DNA from: Candidatus Helarchaeota archaeon
Lineage (GTDB): Archaea; Asgardarchaeota; Lokiarchaeia; Helarchaeales; RDOG01
Length of the DNA: 64,000 bases
Direction of reading: 5' to 3'
Assembly: GCA_019058315.1 (NCBI GenBank)
Contig: JAHPZH010000004.1
Coordinates: 256,001 to 320,000, forward strand
The notes under the pieces were generated by a model. That model worked only from the letters and a program-made list of their open reading frames with translations, was not told where the DNA came from and searched no databases. The translations under genes and the position numbers were made by a program. Below, piece by piece: positions 33,140 through 54,958 of the stretch; position 1 is the first letter of the stretch, and each line of letters begins with the position of its first letter.

Positions 33140-33832
33140 TTGGTCAATAAAGAAAAATGTAAATTGACAGCTGCGAGAGCTGCTGTTGAATATATTAAAG
33201 ATAATCAAATTGTTGGTATCGGGTCGGGTTCTACTATAGCTCATGCAATCCATTGTTTAGGAGAAAAAATCCAAAGTACAGGAATAAAAATTATGGCAGT
33301 TCCCACCTCATATCAATCTGCTATGCTATTAACAGAATATAACATTCCAATTACTACTTTAAATGAGCATCCAGTTCTAGATATCGCGATCGATGGAACT
33401 GATGAGGTGGACCCAAATTTTAATCTTATAAAAGGTGGAGGTGCGGCGTTAACTCAAGAAAAAATAATTGATTCTGCTGCCAAGAAATTAATAATAATTG
33501 CTGATGAATCTAAAAAAGTCAAATTTTTGGGGGAAAAGACCGCTTTACCGATAGAAGTTATTCCCATGGCACTTAAAACAGTAACAAATAAGATAAAAGA
33601 ATTGACTACTGAGATAAAACTACGGATGGCGGTTAAGAAATTAGGACCTGTAGTAACTGATAATGGTAATTTCATTATAGACGCTCGTTTTTCAAAAATT
33701 AAAGATCCAGAATCACTTGAGAAAGAATTAAACGTTATTCCAGGTGTTGTTGAGAACGGATTATTCGTAAATATGACAGATATTGTAATAATTGGTCAAG
33801 AAGATAAAGTGGAAATTTTAGAGAAAAAATAA
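33140..33832 (+). CDS. rpiA: Ribose-5-phosphate isomerase A
   Basis: 'GIGSGST', 'IDGTDEVD', 'IKGGGAALTQEKII', 'VVTDNGN', 'IPGVVENGLF'. Confidence 0.97.
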   Translation: MVNKEKCKLTAARAAVEYIKDNQIVGIGSGSTIAHAIHCLGEKIQSTGIKIMAVPTSYQSAMLLTEYNIPITTLNEHPVLDIAIDGTDEVDPNFNLIKGGGAALTQEKIIDSAAKKLIIIADESKKVKFLGEKTALPIEVIPMALKTVTNKIKELTTEIKLRMAVKKLGPVVTDNGNFIIDARFSKIKDPESLEKELNVIPGVVENGLFVNMTDIVIIGQEDKVEILEKK

Positions 33833-33840
33833 GTTGAAAA

Positions 33841-33951
33841 TGGCGGACTCGCTGGGATTTGAACCCAGGATTCCAAACTTAGGAGGCTTGTGCCTTATCC
33901 ATACTAGGATCAGAGTTTTCTACTCACTGGATCTTGCTAGGCTACGAGTCC
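33841..33951 (-). tRNA. tRNA-Arg(CCT) with encoded CCA and a 33-nt non-canonical D-loop intron (33902..33934)
   Basis: Minus strand GGACTCG..CGAGTCC acceptor stem, anticodon loop CT-CCT-AA, T-loop TTCAAAT, 3' GCCA; strict BHB around the insert. Confidence 0.95.
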
Positions 33952-34026
33952 TTCTTTTCTATTATTTGTAATAATATTAATCAAGATTTAAAAATTTTTT
34001 ATAAGGTATATTCTTATTGAATATAA

Positions 34027-34560
34027 ATGCAATCAAAAATTAAAATAATTCTAGCTACTGAAAAACATCTCGAATCAATAGATGAGATGTATAAGGCATG
34101 TATAAATGATTTAAATGATAAAGGGTTACTCCAATGGGATGAAACATACCCCAATAGAGAATTCTTTCTAAAATGGATAAATAATAAAGAATTATATATT
34201 TTAATGACCGAATCAAAAATAATTGGAGCTGTTGCATTAAATGAAGAACAAGCTCCTGAATGGAACTCAGTAAAATGGAAAAATAAGAAGGGCAGAGATC
34301 TTGTAATTCATGCCCTTGCAATACATCCTGACTTTCAAAATAATGGATATGGAAAAATAATTTATAATTTCTGTGAAGATTTTGCAATTAAAAATACTTA
34401 TAATGGAATACGTTTAGATGCCTTTTCTGAGAATAAAAATGCATTAGAATTTTATAAGAGAAAGGGATTTGAGAAAACAGGAGAAGTTTATTTTACATTT
34501 AAACCTAAAGGGCACCAATGTTATTTTTGTTTTGAAAAAATTTTTGATAATAAAGAATAA
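34027..34560 (+). CDS. GNAT family N-acetyltransferase
   Basis: 'QWDETYP', 'IHALAIHPDFQNNGYGK', 'IRLDAFSENKNALEFYKRKGF'. Confidence 0.93.
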   Translation: MQSKIKIILATEKHLESIDEMYKACINDLNDKGLLQWDETYPNREFFLKWINNKELYILMTESKIIGAVALNEEQAPEWNSVKWKNKKGRDLVIHALAIHPDFQNNGYGKIIYNFCEDFAIKNTYNGIRLDAFSENKNALEFYKRKGFEKTGEVYFTFKPKGHQCYFCFEKIFDNKE

Positions 34561-34851
34561 AAACTCTAGAATCTTATTAATTTAAAATTATCTAATTAAT
34601 TTTGATTTTTGATAAGAGCATAGAACCATGTTACATTCATTATTTATTTTAAGGGATAACGGCGTTTGGGTTTACTACAACCATTATTTTTTGAAAAGAG
34701 TTTAGCCCCAAAATCAAGGAAATCCAAAAAAGCATAAAAAAAGTTTCCCAAACCACAATACCAAAAAATCAAAAATCGTTCACACTTTAAAAATTTTGAG
34801 ATTTTCATAAAACGAATTAGAAAAAAAGAGATAAAAGAAAAGTAAAAAAAT

Positions 34852-36981
34852 TTAGAATTTCAAAAATAGATATTCAACAAGTAGCAATAATTTCATAATT
34901 TGTCGGTATTTAACAACAGTCCTTCTACTACATTTATGTTTCTTCACTAAAGCACTAGCTTTAACATTCTTATTATTCTTTATTATGTCATGACAATCCT
35001 TCATTAATTCCAAAACATTTGACTTTTTTCCCATTCTTCCGTTTAAAGTGTTAAACTTTATTTTGAAATCATCCTTCAAAATCTTGTGCAAATAGCCATA
35101 ACTTACATCATGTTTTTCAGCAAACTTAACCCAATGTTTTTTCTCATTTGGAATTTCCTTCAATTTATGCTGTTTATTTACTTTTGTATTTAACTTTATT
35201 TCTATATCGTTAAAAAGTTCTTTTCTTTGTTCCTTTGATAACCTTTTCGACTTAGAATAATTTAGACCTCTAAATTTCTTTTTAGGAAAATAATTCTTTC
35301 GAATTGTTGAAATGTATGCTTCTGAAGTTTCAAATTGCTCTGCAAATTCTTTTTGATTTAGTTCTAAGCCATTATCTAAAATCCTTTGTAGTTCTTTGAT
35401 TATTTCCTCATTTTTATTATCCTCAGTAAATTGATTATGATATCTCTTTTTGATATAATTGTTGTAATGGTTTATATAATCGAAATTATGCTCATTTAGA
35501 AAATAATGTGTTATTGCCTTAGTTCTCCTATCCTTGAATAAAACTTTGGTTTGCCATTTCCAAGAAGCATAAATCTGTTTTGTATTTTGTAACTTATCAT
35601 AACTCTTTCGCATAGTCCTACTAACCTCTTTGTAAGTTGTATGCCCCATTAAAGCTATTGCCTCATCTGGATTCAAATGATGTTTGTGAAAATCTGAACC
35701 AATAACATACCTAATGTCATGATAATTCACCCATTTCTTTGATTGTTTAATTAATTCCTTTGGTTTAAAATTGAAATATCTCAAAAATTCATCTAATTCC
35801 TCAGATATTGCGTAATCTGTTAAGTAATATTTCTTTGAAACCTCCCGTAAATACACGTTTAAACTGTTTTCATACATTGCTTGTTCTAACTTAAATGGAG
35901 AAAATATTACATGCCTTATCTGAATCTTTGGGTTTAATTTTCCATTGATATACCTAATTCTATTTCTTGTTTTCATGGTAACAAAGCCCAATAATTTCAA
36001 TAACAAGATTAATTTGTATTCAAAGCCCTGAGGTTTAAATTCCTGAAACCTAGCCCTCGATTTACATTGAATGTTGCCATTTTTCAAAGAATCAATGTAA
36101 TATCTAATTTCCTTAAGAATGTTTCTTATAACCGGATGAATGTAAGAAAATTTCAATCCTCTTGGTTTTTTCTTATAAGAGATTACCCAATCATCTTTTT
36201 TCAAAAACCATAATTCTTTCTCATCAAATCTTAATTCGTTTATCAATTGTTCCTTAGTGTAAATATTCTCCCATTTTAACCGGCAAATTTCAATCCTTCT
36301 ACTACAAAAAGCCAAATTCATCATGAATGAAGCTAAATGTAACAAAGTTTTCAAATGAATCCCGCGTACAGTTTTTTGATCCTTGCTTTTCTTTAGTTCA
36401 ATTTCCGATTTATGAGCTAAATAGTCATCAAAGATACAATTTAGAGTTTTCATCAATAAATTTAGATTGTGATATTCTCTTTGTTTTCCAGATTCATCAA
36501 TGTCATAAGGTAATTCAAAACCCTTCATTACAAATTTCTGTAAATCCTCACTTTCAAAGAAACCTAATAGCAAAGAATAAGCCCTTGTTAAATAAGTTCT
36601 AATGGTTGTAATGTTCAATAGCCCTACTTTATTTTTAGCCATTAACCAATTATAATATTGATTAATTACTTGTTTATCAATTTCATGAACATAGTTTAAA
36701 CCTAAGTGTTTTTTTGCAAAAGTACAAATCCCATTTTTATGGTAAATTTGTTTTAATGCTTTTAATGAACTTGGTTTTCGTTTATTTTTGTAAATTCTCT
36801 TATATTCTGTTAATGCTTCATCTAATCGGATTTGTCTATAATCAGTTTTAAATCCCATTTCTTGAAAAGATTCTTTGAATGTATCTTTGAGAAAATCTTT
36901 GAATAACATAGCTTTCTCATCTTTGGATAAATCTTGTAAAACATCAGCAGTTTTTTTCTTTGGAATAATTGCATTAGCCAT
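34852..36981 (-). CDS. Large tyrosine recombinase/integrase with C-terminal HTH repeats
   Basis: SAM-like N domain; 'CSRRIEICRLKW' (R), 'YHDIRY' (HxxR), 'ALMGH', 'KSYD' (Y); three HTH-like motifs in last ~200 aa. Confidence 0.8.
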   Translation of the reverse strand: MANAIIPKKKTADVLQDLSKDEKAMLFKDFLKDTFKESFQEMGFKTDYRQIRLDEALTEYKRIYKNKRKPSSLKALKQIYHKNGICTFAKKHLGLNYVHEIDKQVINQYYNWLMAKNKVGLLNITTIRTYLTRAYSLLLGFFESEDLQKFVMKGFELPYDIDESGKQREYHNLNLLMKTLNCIFDDYLAHKSEIELKKSKDQKTVRGIHLKTLLHLASFMMNLAFCSRRIEICRLKWENIYTKEQLINELRFDEKELWFLKKDDWVISYKKKPRGLKFSYIHPVIRNILKEIRYYIDSLKNGNIQCKSRARFQEFKPQGFEYKLILLLKLLGFVTMKTRNRIRYINGKLNPKIQIRHVIFSPFKLEQAMYENSLNVYLREVSKKYYLTDYAISEELDEFLRYFNFKPKELIKQSKKWVNYHDIRYVIGSDFHKHHLNPDEAIALMGHTTYKEVSRTMRKSYDKLQNTKQIYASWKWQTKVLFKDRRTKAITHYFLNEHNFDYINHYNNYIKKRYHNQFTEDNKNEEIIKELQRILDNGLELNQKEFAEQFETSEAYISTIRKNYFPKKKFRGLNYSKSKRLSKEQRKELFNDIEIKLNTKVNKQHKLKEIPNEKKHWVKFAEKHDVSYGYLHKILKDDFKIKFNTLNGRMGKKSNVLELMKDCHDIIKNNKNVKASALVKKHKCSRRTVVKYRQIMKLLLLVEYLFLKF

Positions 36982-36982
36982 T

Positions 36983-37186
36983 TTATTTAACCTCCATATT
37001 AATCTTTTTTAATATATCATTCAAATTCAACTTATTTTCTTGGTATAGCTTAATCTCATTATTGGATAACCTATACAGAATTTTGTCTTTCGACCTCTTA
37101 CGGATTCTATCATACTTATCCACAATGAGATAGCCATAAACCTTTTCTTTCCAATACACAAGTTTAATTCTTACCGAAATAGCCAC
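36983..37186 (-). CDS. Small basic beta-sheet DNA-binding-like protein co-transcribed with the integrase (possible excisionase/arm-binding factor)
   Basis: 67 aa, basic, 'YGYLIVDKYDR.RKRSKDKILYRL'; stop abuts integrase start, GGAGG RBS. Confidence 0.55.
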   Translation of the reverse strand: MAISVRIKLVYWKEKVYGYLIVDKYDRIRKRSKDKILYRLSNNEIKLYQENKLNLNDILKKINMEVK

Positions 37187-37421
37187 CTTCTTAAAATTTT
37201 TTTATTAACCATTTTGTAAATATACGGAAATTATATTTTATAAATATTTCCGCATATCATCAGAAAACCGATTAAATTAACGATATACGGAAAACCTCCT
37301 ATCTCATTCAAAATCAAAAAATGGGAATTTCTAATCAAAATGGACACTTTTCGATTAATCGAAAAGTTTTTGTTTCAAGCTTACAAGATATATAGTTAGT
37401 TAGATTCAGGATCTGCTATCT

Positions 37422-37958
37422 TTGGTATTGATGATTTATTATAGAGATAAAAAAACAGGCATGGTTTCGGCTTTAAAGAAATATGCTGGAGAAAAGTTGA
37501 TCAATAAGCAACCGGAAGGTGAAGGACTTATCATTATCTATTGGCTTGGAGGTAAAAGGAAATATCCAAAGATTAAGGGGAAAGGAAAGGCAAAGTCAAG
37601 AATAACCTATATCGGAGAATGGGAATATTTCAAACCAATTCCATACAATTTAGCCAAAAAAATTAATTATAAAATCATAAATGATGAGATTATAATGAAA
37701 AAAATAACTGATAAAAAAGATATTCTAACAAACTTTGCTTTAAACTGCATTGATTTATATTCCGGTAAAAAACTATCAGATGAGTTGAAAGAGGGGATAA
37801 AAGAAGAATTCATTGACTTATATAACGAATTGAGGAAATTGATAATCGAACCTGCTGACTCTCCAAAAATTTATGATTCAAAAATACTAAAAAAGCAGGA
37901 TATTACTAAAAAAATTAAGGCACAAGATAAATGGGATGAATATATTCACGGTACTTGA
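37422..37958 (+). CDS. Hypothetical element protein (basic N-terminal beta region)
   Basis: ORF divergent from the integrase operon; 'KGKAKSRITYIGEW'. Confidence 0.55.
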   Translation: MVLMIYYRDKKTGMVSALKKYAGEKLINKQPEGEGLIIIYWLGGKRKYPKIKGKGKAKSRITYIGEWEYFKPIPYNLAKKINYKIINDEIIMKKITDKKDILTNFALNCIDLYSGKKLSDELKEGIKEEFIDLYNELRKLIIEPADSPKIYDSKILKKQDITKKIKAQDKWDEYIHGT

Positions 37959-38148
37959 AATGACTGAAAGTAAAAAAGATATTTTGGTAAGATTAATAGA
38001 TATCGAATTCGAATTAAACGCTACTAAAAAAATAGTTAAGAACTTAGAAAAAAAGATTGATGGATTAGTCGAATTATTGAAAAAATTCATAATAGTTAGT
38101 GAATCATTCCAAGCTTGTAAGGAATCTCTAGCAGAATTCGAATTTTGA
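37936..38148 (+). CDS. Small coiled-coil protein (likely start MTESKK)
   Basis: Heptad pattern; follows the 37422 ORF. Confidence 0.55.
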   Translation: MNIFTVLEMTESKKDILVRLIDIEFELNATKKIVKNLEKKIDGLVELLKKFIIVSESFQACKESLAEFEF

Positions 38149-38326
38149 AATGATTTAATTTCTTTTATCAGATTTCAATTGTCCAGGATTATTTATTTTA
38201 AAAATAGGTAATAATAATTATTAACTCACACAAAATCTAGAGAGATTTTGAATTAAAATATAGGAGATAGAAAAGATTAAACCTTCAAATACATATCTAT
38301 TAGATATAAAAGAATACTTAAACGAT

Positions 38327-39007
38327 ATGGTAATAATTTTTCCTAATAATAAACTTCATAATGCCAATCTAAAAATTTTAAATTCATTTTTAGAAGTGAA
38401 AAATCGTAAGAAACCCTTTAATTGTCAAAAATGTGGATTTTGTTGTTATTTTGATCCAAAAAGGGAATCAAAAGCCGGAATTACACTTCTTAAGGATGAA
38501 TATAAATTCTTTAGGAAATTAGCTGAAAAAGAGCAAATTGATATAAGATTAGATCATCGTGAGAGAGGATTCTTTTCATATTCATCTATTGATGAACCTC
38601 AATATTGTTTTTTATTTGATAAACAAAATAAGCTTTGTAAAATTTATGATAAGCGACCATTATATTGTAAACATTATCCATTATATCTTATGGATTCAAA
38701 TCCAATATTTGATAAAATTAGGATAAATCAGTCTATAATTTTTTCTTATATTCTTATTAATACAGTTTATTCTTGTAGAGAAATTAATCGTTTGTATGGA
38801 AAAAGCACAAAAATGAATTTATTTGAACTATATCTAACTTTAGATTTCTATTTCCCATCAACACTTCTAAATGATTTAAGAAAATTAGCAAAAATATATG
38901 AAAATGAATATTCAGATTTAAATGTAAAAGTAATTCTAAATTTTGAAGACTATATTGAGATTATATATAAAAATTACGTTGGAAATAAACCAGAATGGGA
39001 AATTTGA
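38327..39007 (+). CDS. YkgJ/FliB-like CxxCxxCC cysteine-cluster protein
   Basis: 'FNCQKCGFCC', 'CFLFD...LCKIYDKRPLYCKHYP'. Confidence 0.9.
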   Translation: MVIIFPNNKLHNANLKILNSFLEVKNRKKPFNCQKCGFCCYFDPKRESKAGITLLKDEYKFFRKLAEKEQIDIRLDHRERGFFSYSSIDEPQYCFLFDKQNKLCKIYDKRPLYCKHYPLYLMDSNPIFDKIRINQSIIFSYILINTVYSCREINRLYGKSTKMNLFELYLTLDFYFPSTLLNDLRKLAKIYENEYSDLNVKVILNFEDYIEIIYKNYVGNKPEWEI

Positions 39008-39035
39008 ATAAATTTTTTCCCTCATTCAATATCAT

Positions 39036-39248
39036 TTATTTCTTCTCCCAAAAATAAAACTCGATAGCATCTCCCAGACTTTTAATCTTATTCTCAATCA
39101 AATCCTTTAACTCGGTAAGAAAATTTCTTAATTCAAAATTCTCATCAGTAATTTTTTTGCAAAAATCAACAATCTGATTATTTTTAACCCTTCTCCTGAC
39201 AAACTCTTCAAACGATAATTTCTTTTCATTTTCATCCATGTCGAACAA
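39036..39248 (-). CDS. Small hypothetical protein
   Basis: 70-aa helical ORF. Confidence 0.5.
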   Translation of the reverse strand: MFDMDENEKKLSFEEFVRRRVKNNQIVDFCKKITDENFELRNFLTELKDLIENKIKSLGDAIEFYFWEKK

Positions 39249-39470
39249 CTCTTAATTATTGAGGGAAATCAAAAGTTTGACCAAATCGGGAACACTAAAG
39301 TTCTTGATAGACAAATTTACTTAACAAATGAAAATATTAAGCAACCTAATAAAGTTTGTGGAGTATCTGATAAGTAATAAGTGGAGAATCAGAGTATCTC
39401 AAAAGTATCAGAGAGTTAGAGTATTGTGAAAGTAAAACGGTAAATTTTAAAAAGAAGATTTTCTTGTTTT

Positions 39471-39514
39471 CTAATATATTATCTGGTTTATATAAAAACC
39501 CGACAATATATTAG
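39471..39514. repeat. Palindromic site 1: ATATTATCTGGTTT-ATATAA-AAACCCGACAATAT (arms extend to 19 bp)
   Basis: Inverted repeat with 6-bp spacer; near-identical arms recur at 54758..54791. Confidence 0.8.
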
Positions 39515-39849
39515 TAAATCCCCAAACCACCGTTGGATCCTCAGATATTGAATTATTGAATTTCCCCTGTCACTTTTCAAAGTTAAAATTTCAAAATATG
39601 TTTCAGGACATCACAAATTTTAATTCTCAAAAACCCTAATATCATCAGATTAATTGCAAAAATTGGATATACAAACTTAATTTCATTATTTTAATTTCTC
39701 GGTTTAATTAAATCATTTTTTTTAGTTATAATAAGTATTTAATTATTTAAATAAGAATAATATCAAACAATAAATAGGTAAAATCAAAATTTTTTTTTGT
39801 CATTAATGTAAATAATAACTATTGTAATTTTTGGGAATTTGGTGAGATT

Positions 39850-41187
39850 TTGTCGAAACGATTATCATTGGAAGTAAAATCGATTAATGATTTGAAAATT
39901 CTTGATAAATACCCTCAATACTGGAAGGATATTACATCATTTTTAGTAATTAGCTCAAAAACCCTATCAATAAAAGATAAACAAGGTCTAATAAAAAGAT
40001 TAAAACAAATTAACATACCAATTCATGTTGAATCTTATTCTTGGTGGTTCACACATCCAAGAACTAAACAGAAATTATCAGATCCCGATAATAACCCAAA
40101 TTTTGAAAAAAACCCAAATTTATTATTTGCTATTCAAAATATCTCTGAAGATTTAATCTTAGAAGGATGGGAATCAACAATTCTCCATGATAAAAATTTT
40201 GATTGTATTGATAATTGGATAGGATATCAACGAAACTTGAATAAAAATTTTAGAAAAAAACAACAATCCCTAAATAAAATAAAATCTTTACGCTCAAGAT
40301 TAGTTAAAAAAGATGATGCGTGTGCTGAACTTGAGTCATTTTCCCTTCCATATATTCCAATTATCGATATTTCAGGTCATAAAGAAGAAGTAACAAATGC
40401 TATAAATGCAAATATTGAAATTATTAAATATTTCAATAATAAAAATACTCAAACATTTAAGAAGCAAGTGTGCCCATCAATAGTAATTAATTTTAAAGCA
40501 ATTGAATGTAAAAGTCTAGAAAAATTGGTAAATTTGATTAAAGATAATTTTGAAATGTGCTGGATTTGGTTCGTTGATATAGACGATAGAAAACTTCCAG
40601 AAATTGATATAAGAAAATTATGGAAATATATCAGATATCTAAATAGAGGGAGTAAAAAAATCTTTAGACTAAGATTGGGAGGATTTTTATCCCATAGATT
40701 CTTAAAAAATGAATTTCCATCAATTTGTTCTTTCATAGATGGTTGGGGTGCTTATAATTTTACACCAAATTATTATCAAGATGAAGAAGATATAACTTAT
40801 TATGGAAGAAAGAGACATGTTTTCTCCCCACAATTAGGAAGATTTGTTTCAGGCAATACTTTAAGTAAAGAGTTAGAGCAGAAAAAATGTAATTTCAAAT
40901 GTGATTGTTTTGCTTGTAAAAAACTAATTGCGGAATCAAAATTAACAATTCCAGAGATGGAGTATAAAAGAAATGAAGCTAGAAAAGAAGAGAAAAGATT
41001 GAACATAGAGTCAGTTGGTGTATCCCAAAATAAGCAATCAGAATTTTTAAGACTTCATGGTATGATATGTTTTTATAATTTATTAAAAATTAGTGATAAA
41101 GAATTCAGTAATCTTGAAAAAAAGTGGGTCAATCCAGGATTAAAAAAATGGAAAATCATAGAAAAAGAAATGAGTAGAGGTGATTAG
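39850..41187 (+). CDS. TGT/queuine-tRNA-ribosyltransferase-like TIM-barrel protein with C-terminal Zn site
   Basis: Alternating beta/alpha pattern; C-terminal CxCxxC (CDCFAC) plus downstream His (RLHG), like the TGT Zn site. Confidence 0.55.
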   Translation: MSKRLSLEVKSINDLKILDKYPQYWKDITSFLVISSKTLSIKDKQGLIKRLKQINIPIHVESYSWWFTHPRTKQKLSDPDNNPNFEKNPNLLFAIQNISEDLILEGWESTILHDKNFDCIDNWIGYQRNLNKNFRKKQQSLNKIKSLRSRLVKKDDACAELESFSLPYIPIIDISGHKEEVTNAINANIEIIKYFNNKNTQTFKKQVCPSIVINFKAIECKSLEKLVNLIKDNFEMCWIWFVDIDDRKLPEIDIRKLWKYIRYLNRGSKKIFRLRLGGFLSHRFLKNEFPSICSFIDGWGAYNFTPNYYQDEEDITYYGRKRHVFSPQLGRFVSGNTLSKELEQKKCNFKCDCFACKKLIAESKLTIPEMEYKRNEARKEEKRLNIESVGVSQNKQSEFLRLHGMICFYNLLKISDKEFSNLEKKWVNPGLKKWKIIEKEMSRGD

Positions 41188-42223
41188 AATTAATCAATTA
41201 ATAGAAGAAAGTGAAGAAGATTTTAACGAAGATAATTATGATTTATTATTGATATTATTAAATAGTCTTTATCCAAAAACTATTCTAAAGACTCGTTTAA
41301 TGAAATTAAGTTGGTTTTTTTTTGAACTTGGAAATCTACCAAAGATATTAAATTTAGAAAATTACTCAATGGACTTTGAACCTCATTTACTTGGTGGAAG
41401 CGATTATGCTATTGATAATAATCTATCTATTATGGAAAATGATGGATTAATAGAAACAACACAGAGAGTATCAAACCAAGCAAATGATTATGAAGTAATT
41501 TCAATTAGAAAAGATAAACATGATGAAATTTCAGAAAATATAAAACAATATTGGATTGATAAAGAAGCAGATAAATTTATTAATTTAAATGATTTTAAAA
41601 ATTCCCTTGATATTTTTAATTCATTATTTAAAGATGATAATAGCCTGATTGGATTTTTATATAGATTAGATCCTGAAAGAACCAAGAACTCAATTATTAT
41701 TTCAAAAGTAAAGAAAATCATGACACCTGAAAAATTTAAGGATTGCATTTACAATATATTTCAAAATTTACGACCAATTTTTTCATTAACTTTGTTTTAT
41801 TCAAGAAAACAAGCGAATTCAGTAGTAAGAATTTTAAATAACGAAGAAAAAATCATTGAAATTAATACAGAATGGTTATATAATTTATCTGAAGCTTTGG
41901 TAAACCATTATTTAAAGAATGAAAATGAAATAATGAATAGAATAATAAGTAAACTAGCTGGTCAGATATCATTAAAATGTCGAACAGGAGGGTACGAACA
42001 ACTTGAGAAATATTTTGTTATTATTGAAGGATTATGGAGGTATAATTTATCGTCAGATATCCCAGTTGAATTCTTAAGACAAATAACCGTTAATCTTTTG
42101 TTTAATATTGAAAATAAACAATTATTAGAAACAGAGATTATAAATTTACAACAATTATTCAAAAAGCATGATCTTGAAATTACACCAAAAATTGACCTCT
42201 TTAAAACTTATTTACAGGTTTAG
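41180..42223 (+). CDS. SocA/Panacea(DUF4065)/YwgA-like wHTH antitoxin-like protein with helical C-terminal extension
   Basis: 'KTRLMKLSWFF...FEPHLLGG.D..I...L..M..DGLI' matches the K.kLqKL.f...F....yGP pattern; overlaps upstream stop. Confidence 0.6.
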   Translation: MIRINQLIEESEEDFNEDNYDLLLILLNSLYPKTILKTRLMKLSWFFFELGNLPKILNLENYSMDFEPHLLGGSDYAIDNNLSIMENDGLIETTQRVSNQANDYEVISIRKDKHDEISENIKQYWIDKEADKFINLNDFKNSLDIFNSLFKDDNSLIGFLYRLDPERTKNSIIISKVKKIMTPEKFKDCIYNIFQNLRPIFSLTLFYSRKQANSVVRILNNEEKIIEINTEWLYNLSEALVNHYLKNENEIMNRIISKLAGQISLKCRTGGYEQLEKYFVIIEGLWRYNLSSDIPVEFLRQITVNLLFNIENKQLLETEIINLQQLFKKHDLEITPKIDLFKTYLQV

Positions 42224-42226
42224 AAT

Positions 42227-43102
42227 TTGGATGAACGCACAAAAAGTATAAATTCATTAATTATTGACTCAGACGCCATTATCAATCTTTTTTTTGGGAC
42301 AGAAAACGCACGAAAAGACATAAAAACCATCATTAAAGATAGTGAGAATGTTTTCATCACCACTTACACAATAGGTGAGTTAAAAAGAGTCATCTTAAGT
42401 ACTTTAATAAATATTCATTATACAATCCAAAATTGGATCATTAAGGAGAAATGGGAAGATTTTAATAAAAAATTATTAATCCAGAGAAGTAGAGATATTT
42501 TTCTAAAACTATATGGAGGAAGCGAACGGAAAACTTTACGATTAAAAGAATTTTATATGTCGATATTTCTCGATTTCTTATCAGATACTTTTGATTTACC
42601 AATAAGAGATTCTAGAACTGTATTTTTAAAAAGATTAGAGAACTATATCGAGAATTTTGATGTTCTATTTATTAATGATGATTTTGAAAAAAGGAATAGT
42701 TCAATGAATTGTAATTGGCTAAATTATAAAATTCAAATAGAAAATAAGGAATTAAAATTTTATAAAAAGGGCTTTGGATGTTTAAAATTAAAATGTAATA
42801 CATTAAATGAGATATTGAAGTATTTTACATCAAATAAGGAAAGATTGCTAAAGGTTTATAAAATAAAAAATTTTAAACCAATTCCGAATTGGTATCCTAA
42901 TTTCAAAATGTTATTTAATTTATTTTTAAACAAGATGTTGGATAAAAGCTATAAAAGATTATCTTATAAATGTAAATCGTTAGGAGACTTAATTCTAATT
43001 ATCGACACTAATGAAAATGAAACTATCCTTACTTCAAATAATCGAGATTTTCAAGCTACAACTCATATTCTTGGAATCAATTTAATAATTTTTAAAAGAT
43101 GA
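42227..43102 (+). CDS. PIN-domain nuclease with large insertion
   Basis: 'LIIDSDAII', 'YTIGELKR', 'LGDLILI', 'ILTSNNRDF': four acidic PIN positions. Confidence 0.8.
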   Translation: MDERTKSINSLIIDSDAIINLFFGTENARKDIKTIIKDSENVFITTYTIGELKRVILSTLINIHYTIQNWIIKEKWEDFNKKLLIQRSRDIFLKLYGGSERKTLRLKEFYMSIFLDFLSDTFDLPIRDSRTVFLKRLENYIENFDVLFINDDFEKRNSSMNCNWLNYKIQIENKELKFYKKGFGCLKLKCNTLNEILKYFTSNKERLLKVYKIKNFKPIPNWYPNFKMLFNLFLNKMLDKSYKRLSYKCKSLGDLILIIDTNENETILTSNNRDFQATTHILGINLIIFKR

Positions 43103-43251
43103 TTGTTAATTTTAAAAATTAAATTTTATCGGCTTTTTCTAAACCCTAGATTCTCTAAAAGCTATTAGACTTGAAAAGGTATTAAGTTTAGCTCAGCTAA
43201 CCTGAAAGGTTCAAATTATTGTATGGTCGAATGTTTATAACCCAAAAATAA

Positions 43252-43686
43252 TTATTGTTGCTGGGGAATTGATTTCAAAAAAATAGCCAAATTTTCTAAA
43301 AAATTTCCAAGATAAGCAGGATTATAAAGCAATTCTTTAACTTCTTGTGCAATTTTGGGTTTATCTTTCTCTTTATCGGTAACTCCTATTGTAAAAAACT
43401 TTAAACCCCTTAAAGTATCAATCCCGACCTTTTTATAATCAAACCTTTCTTCTGCTGTAACTTCTGTTATCTTTCCCCTCTTAATCATTGCTTTGAATTT
43501 CTTTGGTTTCTCCTTTTTGACTTTCTTTATCGGTTTTTTCTTTGGTACAACTTCATCTTTTTTAATAACTTCCTCATAAGCTTTTATTTTAGTTTCAACA
43601 TGGGTTTCTACACTTTTTTTAATGTAATCTTCTGTTGATTCCGGTTCTTCTTCCTTATCCTCAAAAAAATCCCAATCATCAGGCAC
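43252..43686 (-). CDS. Hypothetical element protein
   Basis: Acidic then Lys-rich N-terminus; overlaps 43679 ORF. Confidence 0.6.
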   Translation of the reverse strand: MPDDWDFFEDKEEEPESTEDYIKKSVETHVETKIKAYEEVIKKDEVVPKKKPIKKVKKEKPKKFKAMIKRGKITEVTAEERFDYKKVGIDTLRGLKFFTIGVTDKEKDKPKIAQEVKELLYNPAYLGNFLENLAIFLKSIPQQQ

Positions 43687-43996
43687 TTTTATAACGCCCC
43701 ACTATATCTTTAAAGAATTGTTTATCTTCCGTACTTAAAATTAAAGCCCCTTTATTCTTTTGAAAAAAATCCATGAAATATTTAATATCTTCTTTTTTCC
43801 ATTTCTCATTTTCTTTTGTTTTGGTTTCAATCTTTTTTATATCATTGCCTAGCCCTTCCAACTCCATAAGCAACGATTTGTCATTGATATCTGCTATCAT
43901 AGTAACTTTCTCAAAATCAATCCCATTCCTTTTTAGCAATCTACGGGTTTTATTCTTTAAGACTTTATTTTCGGGATATTTTATTACAACCTTCAA
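43679..43996 (-). CDS. Hypothetical element protein
   Basis: 105-aa ORF translationally coupled to 43252 ORF. Confidence 0.6.
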   Translation of the reverse strand: MKVVIKYPENKVLKNKTRRLLKRNGIDFEKVTMIADINDKSLLMELEGLGNDIKKIETKTKENEKWKKEDIKYFMDFFQKNKGALILSTEDKQFFKDIVGRYKSA

Positions 43997-44252: not shown

Positions 44253-45383
44253 ATGAATAAAACAGCACTTTTTAAAATTCTAGATAATTTAAAAACTAAA
44301 TTAGATAGCTTCTCCAAGAAGTATGATGAGACGCTTAAGAAAAACTATGAAAACTTAAGTAAACTCAGCGATATTCTTTGGGAGATCCACGAAGCTTCTA
44401 GCTATTCTTGGATTGGACATCAATCTGAAGCATACCACCTAATTGGTAATGAATTTACGATCCCTCCCCCTAGTGAGGGATTTGATATAATGTCTGGACA
44501 TCCAAGATCAGTAAATTGGAAAAGAATACCATATATTGGTATTCAACAATGGATTGAGAATAAAACAGGGTTAAATATCTCAACTATTAGAAAACAAATA
44601 ATCGAAATAATGAATGAAACCCAACAAATACAAGAAGAAATTATTACCGATTTATCTATTTTGAAAGAGTTAAACCAATATAAAACTGAAATAGCGACTT
44701 TAGACGAAATAAATAATATGAAATGGGGTGTTCCAGAATCTTATCTTGTTAAGCAAAAAAGACCAAGTAATTTTTTTACAAGAGATATGCAAGCACTTAA
44801 TCTAGGGATGAGAACTCCTCCACATATAGAATACCTAGTCAATGTGGAATCAAGTCAAACAAAAATTTATTCAATTCGAAATTTTATAAAATTAGCAAAT
44901 AGATTAATAACACAGATTAAAATTAGAGAGGATTTAGAAATCAAGGTTCAACCTACGGATTTAGAAACTTATTATAATCTTATCGAGGAGACTAAAGAAA
45001 ATTTCAGAGCCACAATCATAAAAGAACCAATTAATGAATCTGATGTTCAAGATTATTATGAAAGCTTTTTGAAATCCAATAAATTTGATTTTAACCGCGA
45101 AAAAGATCAAGTCCTTTTTTCTGAGAAATTATTTGTTCCCGACTTCACAAGTGATGAATTTAAAATGGCAATCGAAGTTAAGTTCGTAAAAGATAACAAA
45201 ACTAAATCTGTTGTTATTGAAGGAATGAGTGCAGACTTGAAACCTTACTCTAAAAAGTGGGACAAAATCCTATACATTGTATATGATAAGGGTGGTAATA
45301 TTAACGATGGTAGGAAATTTACAAAAGATTTTAACGAAGAAACAGACGAATTAAGGACAGTATGTTTAGTAATTAAACATTAA
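44253..45383 (+). CDS. Putative defence protein: helical N-terminal domain + C-terminal PD-(D/E)xK nuclease (DpnII/MboI-like C domain)
   Basis: 'NESDVQD...L', 'RE', 'FVPDF......IEVKF', 'D..PY', 'YIVYD'. Confidence 0.75.
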   Translation: MNKTALFKILDNLKTKLDSFSKKYDETLKKNYENLSKLSDILWEIHEASSYSWIGHQSEAYHLIGNEFTIPPPSEGFDIMSGHPRSVNWKRIPYIGIQQWIENKTGLNISTIRKQIIEIMNETQQIQEEIITDLSILKELNQYKTEIATLDEINNMKWGVPESYLVKQKRPSNFFTRDMQALNLGMRTPPHIEYLVNVESSQTKIYSIRNFIKLANRLITQIKIREDLEIKVQPTDLETYYNLIEETKENFRATIIKEPINESDVQDYYESFLKSNKFDFNREKDQVLFSEKLFVPDFTSDEFKMAIEVKFVKDNKTKSVVIEGMSADLKPYSKKWDKILYIVYDKGGNINDGRKFTKDFNEETDELRTVCLVIKH

Positions 45384-46269: not shown

Positions 46270-48105
46270 TTATTTAAACATTAACTGAAAATATTCACTT
46301 GTTTCATTTCCAAAAATGTCTACGACGGTTAAAACTACTGTATAACTTCCTGCATTCTCATATTTATGCCTTATTTTAGTTTTCGCTGTTTTTATTATTT
46401 TTCTTCCCGAACCAATTTGTCTAAATGAATAATCACTTGCTCTAAATAATTTTTCTTCGTTATAGTCCCAATCTATTGCCCAGAAATCTATTAAATCTAA
46501 TGATTCTTCATCTTTTAAATCCAGACCATAAAGAGTTGTATGATAATTCGAATGAAATCTTATAAATTCGATATCAATTGTTAGATTAATTGGATTGATA
46601 GACTGTCGAAATTCTAAGAATGGTAATTCAGAAAAATGATGTTCATTTTCTTCCTCATCATTAATTAAAGATTGAGGAATAATTCTCAGTTCTACTTCTA
46701 TTTTTTGATCTTCTTGGAATAATTTTTTAAAGAAACCAACTTCCATAAAATATTCCCAACCCAAAATTATCAATTTATTTTTATTTAAACTCTTGACTTC
46801 TTCAATTGCATTTTGAATTTCTTTTGGAGAAATTATTGTATCAATACCACCGATATGGATATATGCATCGTTTATTTCGCCATGTAAGTGATCGTAACCA
46901 TCCAAATAAGAACCTTTAAATTGTTTCAAGATATACTCATAATATTTTTTATGGGTTTCGCCAATGTATTCTTCTGATTTTAGTTTCAAAAAGAGAAGAT
47001 GCTTGTTATACATCTCTAAATTTAATAATTGAAATGGGAAACTCGTAGATTTCGAATTTAAGAGAATTCGTTTTCTAATTTCATTTATAGAATATCTACT
47101 AATATCAACTGCTATCCATTTTCGCCCTAATTCTTGACCTGTTGCAACAGTTGTTCCTGACCCGCAAAAAAAATCTGCAATGATGTCATTTTTATTAGAA
47201 CATTGACGAATGATTCTATCAAGTAAAGAAATAGAATTTTCTGTGGGGTAAAGAGTCTTTTTTGTTTTTTCATATCCTGGTATATCAATCCAAATATTAT
47301 CATCATCAGCTTCATATTCAATAGGATCTGCAGTTTTTCGTTTCTTTTTTTCAAATTTTTCAAAAAATTTTGCGTTATTGCTCTTTCGATATAAAAATAA
47401 ACTGTCAACTTGAATAATTAAATGTTTTTGTCGTTCTAATGCTTTATCTGATACTGGTTTATAAATTCTTCTTACAAGATATTCACAAATAAAGTTATTC
47501 TCACCAAAAATTTCATCTAAAATTACTTTAATATAATGCCCATAATGATAATCAAATCTTACAGCCATAAAACCAATATCTTTTAATAATTTATAGATGA
47601 GAAAAGCTCTTTCATAAAACCATTGACATAAATTTTGGATATGATTTGAACCAGTCCATATATTTTTGTATGCAATATCCTTTATTGGACTTGGAAATTG
47701 TTTAATCGTTTTTTTAGTGCCTAATCCAATAGGAATATCAATATATTCATTAGCTCCAGTATAAAAAGGAGGATCAATATATACGAATTGAATTTTATTG
47801 CGGAATTTTCCCTCTAAACTCTTTAATACATATAAATTATCTCCCCAAATGAGTAAATTTTTCCAATTTTTTAAATAATCTTCTTCTTTTTCTTCTTTTT
47901 TTTTCTCATCAGACTCGAAATACTGCATTAAAGTTCTTGGAACTATTTTTTTTATCTTCTTTTTCTTTGATCTCTTCTGTTTTTGTTTTTGCAATAGTGA
48001 ATCATCATCATTTTTAGAGAGATATGTTTCTAAAAATTGTAAGTTTAATTTTGGAATTTCTCGAATATTTTTTTTCCATTTTAATTTTAAAGGGAATTCA
48101 TTCAT
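46270..48105 (-). CDS. mod: Type III R-M methyltransferase subunit (beta class), catalytic motifs intact, TRD truncated
   Basis: 'LIWGDNL', 'YIDPPF', 'DEIFGENNF', 'YPTENS..LLDRII', 'DFFCGSGTT', 'GRKWIAVD', C-terminal 'IDFWAIDWDY...VVDIFGN'. Confidence 0.9.
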   Translation of the reverse strand: MNEFPLKLKWKKNIREIPKLNLQFLETYLSKNDDDSLLQKQKQKRSKKKKIKKIVPRTLMQYFESDEKKKEEKEEDYLKNWKNLLIWGDNLYVLKSLEGKFRNKIQFVYIDPPFYTGANEYIDIPIGLGTKKTIKQFPSPIKDIAYKNIWTGSNHIQNLCQWFYERAFLIYKLLKDIGFMAVRFDYHYGHYIKVILDEIFGENNFICEYLVRRIYKPVSDKALERQKHLIIQVDSLFLYRKSNNAKFFEKFEKKKRKTADPIEYEADDDNIWIDIPGYEKTKKTLYPTENSISLLDRIIRQCSNKNDIIADFFCGSGTTVATGQELGRKWIAVDISRYSINEIRKRILLNSKSTSFPFQLLNLEMYNKHLLFLKLKSEEYIGETHKKYYEYILKQFKGSYLDGYDHLHGEINDAYIHIGGIDTIISPKEIQNAIEEVKSLNKNKLIILGWEYFMEVGFFKKLFQEDQKIEVELRIIPQSLINDEEENEHHFSELPFLEFRQSINPINLTIDIEFIRFHSNYHTTLYGLDLKDEESLDLIDFWAIDWDYNEEKLFRASDYSFRQIGSGRKIIKTAKTKIRHKYENAGSYTVVLTVVDIFGNETSEYFQLMFK

Positions 48106-50716
48106 TTTTATTCTCCAAAATGAACTTTGCCATTTCCAAAAATGGAATCTTTTGAAATGTATTGTAAAATAAATTCTCTTCTACAAACAGATAATTCCAG
48201 TTTTCACCCGCTTTTCTAACCCAATCTTCAGCAACTTTTCTCTTGAGTTTAGTACTTTGTTTATCAATGAATACCTCTCCTTTTGTTTCAATAATATAAT
48301 ATTGATTGTTTGTTGTTAAAACAAAAAAATCTGGTATATATCTTTTAAGAAAACCCTTTTCGTTATAATATAAATAAAATTTCATCTGCTTACTGACTTT
48401 ACAGAAACTTTTAACATCATTATCAGTATCTAAATATAATGCAAATTCTCTCTCTAACGCACTATCAAATGAGATATAATTAAAAATTGTCTTTTTAAAA
48501 CTCTCAACATTTTTACTCGTGAATTGGTGTCCACTTTCAGAAATTTTATAAATTTTTCCAGATTTTTTAAATTCGGTTTCTTTAATGTTTACATCAGAAA
48601 AAATCCTAGTCACTATGTCATAAATTTTCTTAATTACTAAAGGGTGATTTAATTTTAACATGATATTTTCATCTAAAAAGTCAATAGACCTTTCAAAGAA
48701 ATGATTTTTTAAATATTTTTTGAATTTAGGTAAGAAGGGTTGATAAGAATTTGAGATATGGAATTTTTTGAAAAAATGTTTTGTTAAATGGACTATATAA
48801 TCATTAATATCTTGAAAAAATGAAAAATCGATGTTTAATTCTCTTATAATTTCATCATTTCCATATTCCTTTTCATAGTATTTAGGCAGTTGAATTTTTA
48901 TTTCATCAATTTTCATTACTTGTTTTTCTAATTTCTCCCATGGAAAATCTTCTAAAGAGTTAATATGATAAAAAAAACCTCCTGACAATATTGGAATCTC
49001 AATGTCCAATTCTTTTTTTGAATGTAAAGGAAAAATTAATATTTCACTTGGTCTGAAGTCACCTATTTTACTAGTTTCAATATCAAAGAAGGTAAAATCA
49101 TCTTCACTTATACCTTCCTTCTTCAAAGCATTCACTATTAATGGTTCAAACCGTTCATGTTCAATTACCGTTAAATATTCATCTTGATCTTGAAATTGTT
49201 TCCTTAGTCCTCTTCCAAGAGTCTGTTCAACAAGAATATTCGATTCATAGGATCTTAATGGAACGATTACCTTAACACTTTTTACATCCCATCCTTCTTT
49301 CAACATCATAACACTTACAATAATTTTATAAGGATTAGTTGATTCATCGATAGTTTCAGCTGCATCCATAAGGTCGTCTATTTCCTCATCTAAGATTTCT
49401 CCTGCATTAACTCCTTTTTCTATCGTATGAATTAACAATACATTTCTTTTCGTATAGTTAGGATATTCTTCAACTATAAACTTCCAAACTTCATCAGCAT
49501 GTTTATTTTTATCTGTCATAATAAAAAGTATTGCTTTTTTATTTAAGGGCGTTAATAATTCTTCATATTCTTCGAGAATTCTAATACCTGCTTGAATCTG
49601 ATATTGGTTTATATATGCAAAATTATCAGATGATACTTCAGGAATATGAGTCAATTTTCCTATTTTAGGAATTTTCACAATTTTGTTATGAATAGCCTTA
49701 GAAAGAGGATAGTCTATAATGATATGTTCAAAGAATTTAGTCTGATCAGTCTGATATCTTGGCGTTGCAGTAAAATCTAATTGGAATTTAATATTATTTA
49801 AGTTATTACGGGTTTTTAGAGCTTTATTAATTTCTATAATGATTCTATTCCATGCTAAATATTCCGAATGGACATGATGAGCTTCATCATTAATAACCAT
49901 TATATTATCTCTAGTGCTTACACTTGAAAATAAAGGATTTTCAGTTGAAGATTTATTTATTAAATCATTTTTATCTATTGAATAATCCGAACTAGACATC
50001 AAACTAGCTTTCTTTAATATAGCAGGTATTGAATCTTGTTTTGAATATAGTTGATGAACATTAGTTAAGAAAATAACTCCTTTTTTATTTATTGGAGTAA
50101 TTTCAGAGCGATAGATAATTTGGATATCAAAGAACTTTTCCCAACCTTTTGGTATGAAAGGATACTTACGAAAAATAGAATTTGCACTGGAAATTGGTAA
50201 AAAATCTTTTTTTAATCTTTTATAAACAATCTTATTTGGAGCTATGACAAGAAAAGTATTAGCTAATCTATCACATATAGGTTCTTTATTTATAAAATTA
50301 AAATAACTCCAAATAATAGCAAGAACCATAATAAAAGTTTTCCCAGAGCCAGTTGCCATTTTAAAGCAATATTTAGGAAATTCGGATTGTTCGGCTTTTT
50401 TATCATATATTTGAGCTAAACTATCATCCCAAAATTTATTAAAAATATCTAGAATGTCTTTAGCTTCTAAAATTTCAACAATATAAATTAGAGTTTCTAT
50501 AGCTAATTGTTGAATTGGATAAAAAGAAAAAATATTTCCATCTGTTGTCTCATGATCAGTTTCAAACCAAAATCCTAAGAGTTGTTTAGTGGTTTTAGTT
50601 ACGCCTTTGTACCTTTCTTCCCAATTTGCATCGGAGTTTCTCCATTCAATTACTTTTTCTAATAATTGTTGAACTATTGGAAATTGGGAAGATGTCAAAT
50701 AATCATTACTATTCAA
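48098..50716 (-). CDS. res: Type III R-M restriction subunit (SF2 helicase-like ATPase + PD-(D/E)xK nuclease)
   Basis: 'KMATGSGKT', 'NDEAHH', 'FTATP', 'MLKEGWDV', 'EQTLGRGLR', 'YIPDF...IIETKG'. Confidence 0.92.
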   Translation of the reverse strand: MNSNDYLTSSQFPIVQQLLEKVIEWRNSDANWEERYKGVTKTTKQLLGFWFETDHETTDGNIFSFYPIQQLAIETLIYIVEILEAKDILDIFNKFWDDSLAQIYDKKAEQSEFPKYCFKMATGSGKTFIMVLAIIWSYFNFINKEPICDRLANTFLVIAPNKIVYKRLKKDFLPISSANSIFRKYPFIPKGWEKFFDIQIIYRSEITPINKKGVIFLTNVHQLYSKQDSIPAILKKASLMSSSDYSIDKNDLINKSSTENPLFSSVSTRDNIMVINDEAHHVHSEYLAWNRIIIEINKALKTRNNLNNIKFQLDFTATPRYQTDQTKFFEHIIIDYPLSKAIHNKIVKIPKIGKLTHIPEVSSDNFAYINQYQIQAGIRILEEYEELLTPLNKKAILFIMTDKNKHADEVWKFIVEEYPNYTKRNVLLIHTIEKGVNAGEILDEEIDDLMDAAETIDESTNPYKIIVSVMMLKEGWDVKSVKVIVPLRSYESNILVEQTLGRGLRKQFQDQDEYLTVIEHERFEPLIVNALKKEGISEDDFTFFDIETSKIGDFRPSEILIFPLHSKKELDIEIPILSGGFFYHINSLEDFPWEKLEKQVMKIDEIKIQLPKYYEKEYGNDEIIRELNIDFSFFQDINDYIVHLTKHFFKKFHISNSYQPFLPKFKKYLKNHFFERSIDFLDENIMLKLNHPLVIKKIYDIVTRIFSDVNIKETEFKKSGKIYKISESGHQFTSKNVESFKKTIFNYISFDSALEREFALYLDTDNDVKSFCKVSKQMKFYLYYNEKGFLKRYIPDFFVLTTNNQYYIIETKGEVFIDKQSTKLKRKVAEDWVRKAGENWNYLFVEENLFYNTFQKIPFLEMAKFILENKNE

Positions 50717-50718
50717 AT

Positions 50719-54689: not shown

Positions 54690-54757
54690 GGGAAATTTTC
54701 TCCTTATTTCCGTCTACGACTAATATACGGGAAATTTCAATTTATTAATTTTCTGAA

Positions 54758-54791
54758 ATATTATCGGGTTTTCATGTAAATCCGATAATAT
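54758..54791. repeat. Palindromic site 2: ATATTATCGGGTTT-TCATGT-AAATCCGATAATAT
   Basis: 14-6-14 inverted repeat; arms match site 1 at 39476..39509. Confidence 0.8.
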
Positions 54792-54796
54792 GTTAG

Positions 54797-54958
54797 CAAT
54801 CAAACAAATCCTTGCTCTTTTGTCAAAATACCCAAGATATCAAACTTCTAACCAACCTCCCAGGTTTTTTGAACGGTTATTCGGTGGTAGCGATAGAGGA
54901 GGAAATGGTCTATGAAAGGAGAAAAAGAGTGGAAAAGACCTTTACGACATTGAAATGA
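54797..54958 (+). pseudogene. Possible IS4-superfamily DDE transposase fragment
   Basis: Unlisted open frame reads ...KLLTNLP-(16 aa)-YERRKRVEKTFTTLK*, matching LLTNL plus Y-2-R-3-E-6-K. Confidence 0.4.

Follow-up and report, generated by a model that had tools for sequence, protein, structure and literature searches.

Positions 39850-43102 of a 64,000-nucleotide stretch of a Candidatus Helarchaeota genome (hereafter the window) hold a cassette of three open reading frames, ORF1, ORF2 and ORF3, which would encode a divergent barrel of the tRNA-guanine transglycosylase (TGT) superfamily, a protein with a SocA/Panacea-like N-terminus and a PIN-like nuclease, respectively. The cassette is best read as a PanAT-like toxin-antitoxin (TA) module or an abortive-infection/defence (or element-addiction) module in which the TGT-fold protein acts as regulator or sensor, a reading for which we regard belief and doubt as evenly balanced. 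By analogy, the nearest idea in the literature for such a TA-like module with a TGT-fold regulator would be the gop-beta-cII arrangement of phage P4 and the TIM-B systems. The three genes are as follows (aa, amino acids).

39850-41187, plus strand: ORF1, 445 aa, TTG start; predicted (beta/alpha)8 barrel, a divergent one of the TGT superfamily, with a zinc subdomain at the C-terminus
41180-42223, plus strand: ORF2, 347 aa, GTG start; SocA/Panacea-like N-terminus and helical C-terminal domain
42227-43102, plus strand: ORF3, 291 aa, TTG start; PIN-like nuclease split by an insert of ~185 aa

The first-pass annotation, made from the letters and open reading frames of the window, had described three co-oriented and translationally coupled genes with an overlap of 8 base pairs (bp) between ORF1 and ORF2 and a gap of 3 bp between ORF2 and ORF3, and the coordinates and strand are as it claimed. 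The products are identical to cassette genes already present in public collections (P0004 and P0006, 100%).

The structure of ORF1 was predicted from 11 sequences including distant relatives, giving a model (predicted local distance difference test, pLDDT, 81.7; predicted template modelling score, pTM, 0.83) in which eight beta/alpha units are followed by a beta hairpin and, at the C-terminus, a subdomain made of helices. In an exhaustive comparison of this model with 48,161 PDB representatives, the TGT superfamily took the top five places, whereas unrelated triosephosphate isomerase (TIM) barrels scored from 12.3 downward.

1iq8, archaeosine TGT: structural match to ORF1, score 18.1
3unt, bacterial TGT: structural match to ORF1, score 16.8
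6fv5, QTRT2: structural match to ORF1, score 16.2
7ui4, DpdA: structural match to ORF1, score 15.5
9ntn, Cap10: structural match to ORF1, score 13.4

A Foldseek search of the same model agrees, both for PDB and for viral models, so that the TGT-like zinc TIM barrel that the first-pass annotation had proposed is borne out by the predicted structure. Profile-profile comparison with hhalign sets the CxCxxC motif of ORF1 on that of the TGTs (best P 3e-4), residues 53-78 on the 'DSGGFQ' strand and residues 288-374 on the TGT 'GiDLFDSV...CxCxxC' stretch. These matches are collinear, individually weak and local, and the relationship could not have been established from sequence alone; on the predicted fold, ORF1 is a genuine, very divergent TGT-superfamily protein. 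ORF1 and nine relatives have no Pfam match at E<=0.1, and a six-frame search of the genome with PF01702 gives three other loci, not ORF1. Beside the ArcTGT and the bacterial-type TGT, the third of these is a partial match (genome G000, contig C5, 116700-117053) that covers profile positions 227-354 and lies in a 326-aa open frame.

The positions of the zinc site and of the putative active site in ORF1 are given below.

40900-40917, plus strand: CxCxxC zinc motif of ORF1 (C351, C353, C356), with the fourth ligand, H403, at 41056-41058
40576-40740, plus strand: candidate active-site carboxylates of ORF1, D243 at 40576-40578 and D297 at 40738-40740

The zinc pattern had been noted earlier as CxCxxC...H; it corresponds to C351-x-C353-x-x-C356 and H403 and is invariant in 10 of 10 full-length members. 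The DSG catalytic motif, which the same annotation had found missing, is indeed absent, the aligned position being E61-S62 in ORF1 and D, N, P or Y in its relatives. Judging from strand ends in the model and from the hhalign alignment, D297 would sit at the end of strand 8, where TGTs carry their nucleophile Asp, and D243 at the end of strand 6; the former is kept in 8 of 10 members and the latter in 9 of 10, with carboxylates lost in two loci (L078 and L038). The guanine-edge residues of TGT, DpdA and Cap10 map to E61-S62 (the Asp-Ser pair), a position that varies among family members, and to S165 (the second Asp), and the ligand of ORF1 is probably something other than guanine or preQ in the canonical pose. 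ORF1 resembles the TGT superfamily (1iq8, 3unt, 6fv5, 7ui4, 9ntn; PF01702) in its predicted barrel, hairpin and helical zinc subdomain, in the CxCxxC...H pattern, followed in distant members by HN(I)xxF, and, by the strand-end mapping, in a putative nucleophile Asp at the end of strand 8. In contrast, it is only 7-12% identical to these proteins, does not conserve the nucleobase-edge Asp/Ser, carries a helical insert of ~95 aa between strands 3 and 4, and is encoded in a mobile nuclease cassette rather than in a tRNA-modification or dpd context.

The same residues bear on a different explanation, in which the cassette is a miniature Dpd-like restriction-modification system. ORF1 would then act as a DpdA-like enzyme that inserts 7-deazaguanine (host preQ0) into element or host DNA, the PIN-like protein, joined in four-gene forms of the cassette by a PD-(D/E)xK protein, would cut unmodified incoming DNA, and ORF2 would be a DNA-binding or controller subunit. 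The host genome contains QueC and two TGTs and thus makes preQ0, and a deazaguanine-based mark is therefore chemically possible. However, the family does not conserve the residues by which the guanine or deazaguanine edge is read, with S165 in place of Asp, and a DpdB-like ATPase is lacking; together with the points on ORF2, ORF3 and gene content given below, this leaves the Dpd-like explanation rather improbable.

ORF2 had been assigned a SocA/Panacea-like winged helix-turn-helix on the strength of KTRLMKL...FEPHLLGG, which occupies residues 37-73, and profile-profile comparison confirms this N-terminal domain. The ORF2 family aligned with six Asgard proteins that match PF13274 at 96.6% in hhalign (E 5.7e-10, 143 columns, residues 12-182), compared with 0.1-0.5% for cross-controls, and a hidden Markov model (HMM) for the ORF2 family recovers three of the six at E 1.7e-13 to 2.6e-6. 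ORF2 and its relatives have no Pfam match, the PF13274 model itself not scoring ORF2, and a six-frame search of the genome with PF13274 gave nothing. These profile comparisons make the N-terminal half of ORF2 a remote relative of SocA/Panacea. The last 165 residues are helical, with no relatives detected outside the family.

41213-41725, plus strand: SocA/Panacea-like domain of ORF2 by hhalign, residues ~12-182
41948-42199, plus strand: C-terminal helical domain of ORF2, residues ~257-340, predicted by the complex model to contact ORF3

Panacea is an experimentally established promiscuous antitoxin domain that neutralises very diverse toxin folds, and a third, accessory gene is frequent in Panacea TA loci, its part in toxicity being doubtful (PMC8832971). 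The likeness of the cassette to PanAT/SocAB (type II TA, DUF4065) lies in the remote homology of the ORF2 N-terminal domain to PF13274-matching proteins, in mobility, in the adjacency and coupling of ORF2 to a putative nuclease toxin, and in the conserved accessory gene. The differences are that ORF2 is larger than the domain by a factor of three, that its predicted contact with the toxin is made by the extra C-terminal domain, and that the third gene is constant here, whereas it is sporadic in PanAT.

ORF3 was previously read as a PIN nuclease, which is consistent with sub-threshold Pfam matches, hhalign and conserved residues. The Pfam models PIN or PIN_3 match the same N-terminal region in five family members, all below threshold (E 0.0025-0.054), with a PIN score of 15.8 bits for ORF3 and 14.6-18.9 bits for its relatives against a cut-off of 23.6. 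Compared with 28 Asgard PIN proteins, the N-terminal half of ORF3 gives 70-81% in hhalign (E 1e-5 to 4e-5), and the C-terminal half compared alone with PIN is not significant. Across 10 ORF3 members, D14, E51, D/E90, D254 and N271 are invariant, as are the four cysteines C162, C185, C190 and C249. The full acidic quartet claimed by the first-pass annotation is therefore only partly present: D14, E51 and D254 are invariant, whereas D274 alternates with His and the expected fourth Asp is the invariant N271. The large insertion, put earlier at ~190 aa, is found as ~185 aa between E51 and D254.

42410-42961, plus strand: ORF3 insert, residues ~62-245, with C162, C185, C190 and C249 in the insert or at its edge

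These features fit a metal-dependent, PIN-like nuclease in which zinc would have a structural role. The likeness to VapBC lies in the PIN strand-helix at the N-terminus, which bears the first Asp, in a Glu that is conserved, in a 'GD(l/f)(i/f)L' helix that carries the third Asp and precedes a 'T-x-N/D' strand, and in a partner gene immediately upstream. ORF3 differs from VapC-type proteins in that its domain is split by the ~185-aa Cys4 insert, its fourth Asp is an invariant Asn, a Panacea-like protein takes the place of the VapB-type DNA-binding antitoxin as its partner, and its Pfam PIN scores are sub-threshold.

A model of ORF2 together with ORF3 gave an interface score (interaction prediction score from aligned errors, ipSAE) of 0.83 in all three runs (range 0.83-0.84), compared with 0.01 for the best of three controls. 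In the calibration of the tool, which holds only approximately, as own alignments were used, 58 of 80 solved complexes scored this high, compared with 2 of 110 mismatched pairs. The runs had at least 89% of contacts in common, and the partner pLDDT was at least 81. On the ORF2 side, the modelled interface comprises residues 257-340, including the conserved C-terminal 'DLEITP' tail; on the ORF3 side, it comprises residues 22-33, i.e., the 'FFGT' loop just after D14, and the insert helices 108-152. The model supports binding of ORF2 to ORF3 and points to the extra C-terminal domain of ORF2, instead of its Panacea-like domain, as the part that would hold the nuclease. An ORF2 with kinship to an antitoxin domain and a predicted tight hold on ORF3 would be hard to match with the controller subunit of a Dpd-like system.

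It has also to be asked whether ORF1 rather than ORF3 might be the toxin, i.e., a transglycosylase or glycosylase acting on tRNA, rRNA or DNA bases that ORF2 neutralises, with ORF3 as a second effector or as a nuclease cutting the damaged site. The two mostly conserved carboxylates, which the model places at the catalytic face of the barrel, would suit such an enzyme, as would the very diverse toxin folds on which Panacea antitoxins act, and DNA glycosylases are reportedly emerging among defence enzymes; however, the one modelled interface joins ORF2 with ORF3, and the carboxylates are lost in L078 and L038. We know of no toxin from the TGT family, and we consider a toxic ORF1 very unlikely.

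The preferred reading, with ORF3 as the effector and ORF1 as its regulator or sensor, draws further on the distribution of the family, which was surveyed by profile searches of 400 Asgard genomes. ORF1-like genes occur in 8 genomes and ORF3-like genes in 17, and all of the long-form ORF3 homologues (7/7) are flanked by ORF1-like and ORF2-like genes. ORF1-like genes are coupled to long-form ORF3 genes across 16-60% protein identity. The triplet co-occurs elsewhere, a point on which the first-pass annotation had made its proposal depend: the genes stay together, with translational coupling, in each of the seven Asgard genomes and three metagenome contigs that were checked.

L001, another Helarchaeota genome: complete triplet
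L037, genome G002: complete triplet
L004, metagenome contig: ORF2 and ORF3, preceded by the 3' end of ORF1, with a PLD-type nuclease (phospholipase D-type) alongside
L003, L007 and L008, metagenome contigs: ORF1-ORF2 pairs, the loci being cut by contig ends

A four-gene form is present in G228, G147, G179, G253 and G183, in the order PD-(D/E)xK protein (133-147 aa, with a clear RxD...ExK), ORF1-like, ORF2-like and ORF3-like, the genes overlapping or abutting. The small PD-(D/E)xK gene was looked for in the window and the close clade, and none was found. Short ORF3 forms (243-244 aa; G013 and G018) have a small winged-helix gene as their only partner, and these pairs look like ordinary two-gene TA loci. 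Both the three-gene form without a PD-(D/E)xK nuclease and the short ORF3 forms without any TGT-like gene argue against the Dpd-like explanation.

Beyond these genomes, word-index searches returned 2-3 relatives per protein, and a profile built from four close sequences gave 3 matches among 1.84 billion representatives, a number that may reflect the narrow profile, and the wider family may be larger. Pattern scans of genome, metagenome and viral contigs gave no relative, and tblastn against plasmids and phages gave no match. The cassette has so far been seen only in Asgard archaea.

Several features of individual relatives were observed as well. The small PD-(D/E)xK-like family (133-181 aa, motif RxD...(V/I)E(V/F)K) is found at L038 9448-9891, L039 5202-5603, L040 6673-7086, L078 5726-6145, L079 5048-5473 and L045 2539-3084, and has weak Pfam matches only (SfsA, Hjc, HSDR_N and NERD); in L045 the gene comes after a stand-alone Panacea-like gene. 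In G179 (L040 9210-9330), stops occur in the ORF3-like gene where the N-terminal PIN strand is expected; the first catalytic Asp is probably missing from this copy, which may be in decay. In G228 (L038 6831-6866), the ORF3-like 'IPDTS' strand lies upstream of the first ATG, GTG or TTG, so that the gene probably has a non-canonical start codon or a mis-called start. In L008 (1372-2257), the ORF1 homologue is reduced to its last 113 residues, i.e., the zinc subdomain only, and lies directly downstream of a truncated VapC-like gene and still upstream of the ORF2 homologue.

The cassette and its 211-bp leader (39639-43180) are 95.9% identical to the corresponding block in L001, whereas the adjoining rpiA region is only 72% identical. 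The GC content of the cassette is 25.3%, compared with 32.7% for nearby core genes and 28.7% for the AT-rich window, and the genes neighbouring the cassette differ in every genome. Because of this disparity in identity, the low GC content and the different neighbours in each genome, the cassette moves horizontally as a unit.

39639-39849, plus strand: upstream non-coding leader and probable promoter region; start of the block shared with L001, 211 bp before ORF1

Variable DNA follows rpiA in both genomes (window 33140-39547; L001 1-7948), and the post-rpiA site looks like a recurrent integration hotspot. Since the insertions in the window and L001 share, besides the cassette, only patches (37697-38148, 91%; 39034-39547, 90%), the element is a mosaic. 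A short sequence just upstream of the cassette (39472-39518) recurs ~15 kb downstream (54749-54810) and in L001, with 83-86% identity. The first-pass annotation had placed the cassette opposite in orientation to its flanks, which holds for the immediate neighbours at 39036-39248 and 43252-43996 (minus strand) and fails for the genes at 37422-39007 and 44253-45383. The variable region upstream of the cassette also encodes a 226-aa CxxCxxCC (PF03692) putative zinc/iron-chelating protein (38327-39007). Downstream, the cassette is followed by a gene for a DpnII/MboI-like endonuclease (44253-45383) and by a type III restriction-modification locus (46270-52518). No integrase match was obtained in Pfam for the window's proteins of 709 aa and 402 aa. 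Among the defence-like neighbours in other loci are genes for Mrr and Schlafen (L078), for a PLD nuclease (L004) and for a NucS/PD-(D/E)xK protein (L001).

Such a setting raises the question of whether ORF2 and ORF3 are a plain addiction pair, stabilising an integrative element by post-segregational killing, with ORF1 as accessory cargo, e.g., a nucleic-acid-modifying enzyme. The position of the cassette within the variable region adjoining rpiA and the frequency of an accessory third gene in Panacea TA loci (PMC8832971) would both be expected of such a pair. However, the coupling of ORF1-like genes to 7/7 long-form ORF3 genes is a stronger linkage than that of the sporadic PanAT accessory genes, and other genomes carry the cassette without an obvious surrounding mobile element; on balance, we hold this explanation to be unlikely, though less so than a Dpd-like system or a toxic ORF1. 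Several observations weigh against a regulated TA or defence module. Defence-like neighbours were found at only ~4/10 loci, and several loci lie among housekeeping genes, so that a plain addiction role is equally compatible. The family is rare, being present in ~2% of the Asgard genomes searched. The PIN assignment consists of sub-threshold Pfam matches and 70-81% in hhalign over the N-terminal half only, with an invariant Asn where the fourth Asp is expected, and the modelled contact runs through the C-terminal domain of ORF2, so that the model does not show the classic PanA neutralisation mode. Finally, the conservation pattern of the carboxylates suggests either an enzyme, as D243 and D297 are mostly conserved, or a binder, as each is lost in 1-2 members.

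If the cassette is nevertheless a regulated TA-like module, ORF3 would be the effector, a metal-dependent PIN-like nuclease stiffened by the Cys4 zinc insert. ORF2 would be its Panacea/SocA-type keeper, whose C-terminal helical domain may clamp the ORF3 insert and the loop beside D14 and thereby hold the nuclease off. ORF1 would be a regulatory or sensing subunit that has kept the fold and zinc site of its superfamily and not the guanine-recognition residues; it may bind a nucleic acid or nucleobase cue, or yield a product or mark of base transfer that determines which state the ORF2-ORF3 pair is in. This role would parallel that proposed for beta (TIM-B) of phage P4 over Gop. The analysis shows the folds and remote homologies, the conserved synteny, the horizontal mobility and a modelled ORF2-ORF3 interface, whereas we infer that ORF3 is toxic and ORF2 neutralises it, and likewise what the trigger is and whether ORF1 acts as an enzyme. 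The first-pass annotation had proposed that the TGT-like protein senses a modified (e.g., 7-deazaguanine) nucleic acid or a nucleotide and then frees the PIN RNase from its antitoxin; of this mechanism, the binding of ORF2 to ORF3 has the support of a model, and the sensing step is conjectural. A more specific version, to which we attach little confidence, has ORF1 catalyse nucleobase transfer as the representative of a new TGT branch, covalently marking ORF2 or ORF3 or a specific nucleic acid with a 7-deazaguanine made by the host or with another base, so that loss or removal of the mark on virus infection would free the zinc-PIN nuclease. In type IV CBASS (cyclic oligonucleotide-based antiphage signalling system), the TGT fold of Cap10 can act on protein-linked deazaguanine, and an ORF1 that marks its partner or nucleic acid would correspond, in archaea and independently of QueC, to the 'deazaguanylation' switch of Cap9/Cap10.

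The combination of genes had been put forward as a candidate undescribed system without a recognised name. In agreement with the latter point, ORF1, ORF2 and ORF3 match no PADLOC-DB 2.0 family at E<=0.1. Searches of Pfam, NCBIfam, PHROGs and PADLOC gave no meaningful match for the three proteins apart from the sub-threshold PIN match of ORF3, phmmer and profile hmmsearch against PDB sequences gave nothing useful for them, and a literature search found no paper describing a TGT-fold, Panacea-like and PIN combination. The novelty claim therefore stands insofar as the combination is uncatalogued; the concept, however, has a precedent in the TIM-B systems, in which TGT-related barrels such as P4 beta are predicted to be negative regulators that keep linked effectors off until infection via a base-transfer-related activity (10.64898/2026.10.19.760177). 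Membership of ORF1 in TIM-B (Beta_protein, PF14350) was considered and rejected, as there was no HMM match and hhalign gave 0.1% against seven TIM-B proteins; PF14350 matches 1 of 301 Asgard genomes, and none that bears the cassette. The cassette resembles P4 gop-beta-cII/TIM-B in the linkage of a TIM barrel, akin to deazaguanine transglycosylases, to an effector that can be exchanged, in some cases together with PanA or a nuclease of the restriction endonuclease fold. It differs in that the seven TIM-B proteins lack CxCxxC, which is invariant in the ORF1 family, and in its PIN-like effector, PIN being absent from the effector list of the TIM-B preprint (10.64898/2026.10.19.760177).

Proteins with the TGT fold were long regarded only as base-exchange enzymes of tRNA and DNA. 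Cap10 of CBASS and P4 beta/TIM-B suggest that this fold has been recruited repeatedly to control immune effectors, and the cassette would be a third lineage with a TGT-fold-plus-effector arrangement, unrelated in sequence, in which the zinc subdomain is kept and the partners are a Panacea-like protein and a zinc-bearing PIN protein. The defence repertoire of Asgard archaea is poorly known, and the four unannotated families of the cassette, including the small PD-(D/E)xK proteins of its four-gene form, escape current defence-finding tools. As a compact three-protein system, the cassette may help to show what the TGT fold senses or transfers outside tRNA modification.

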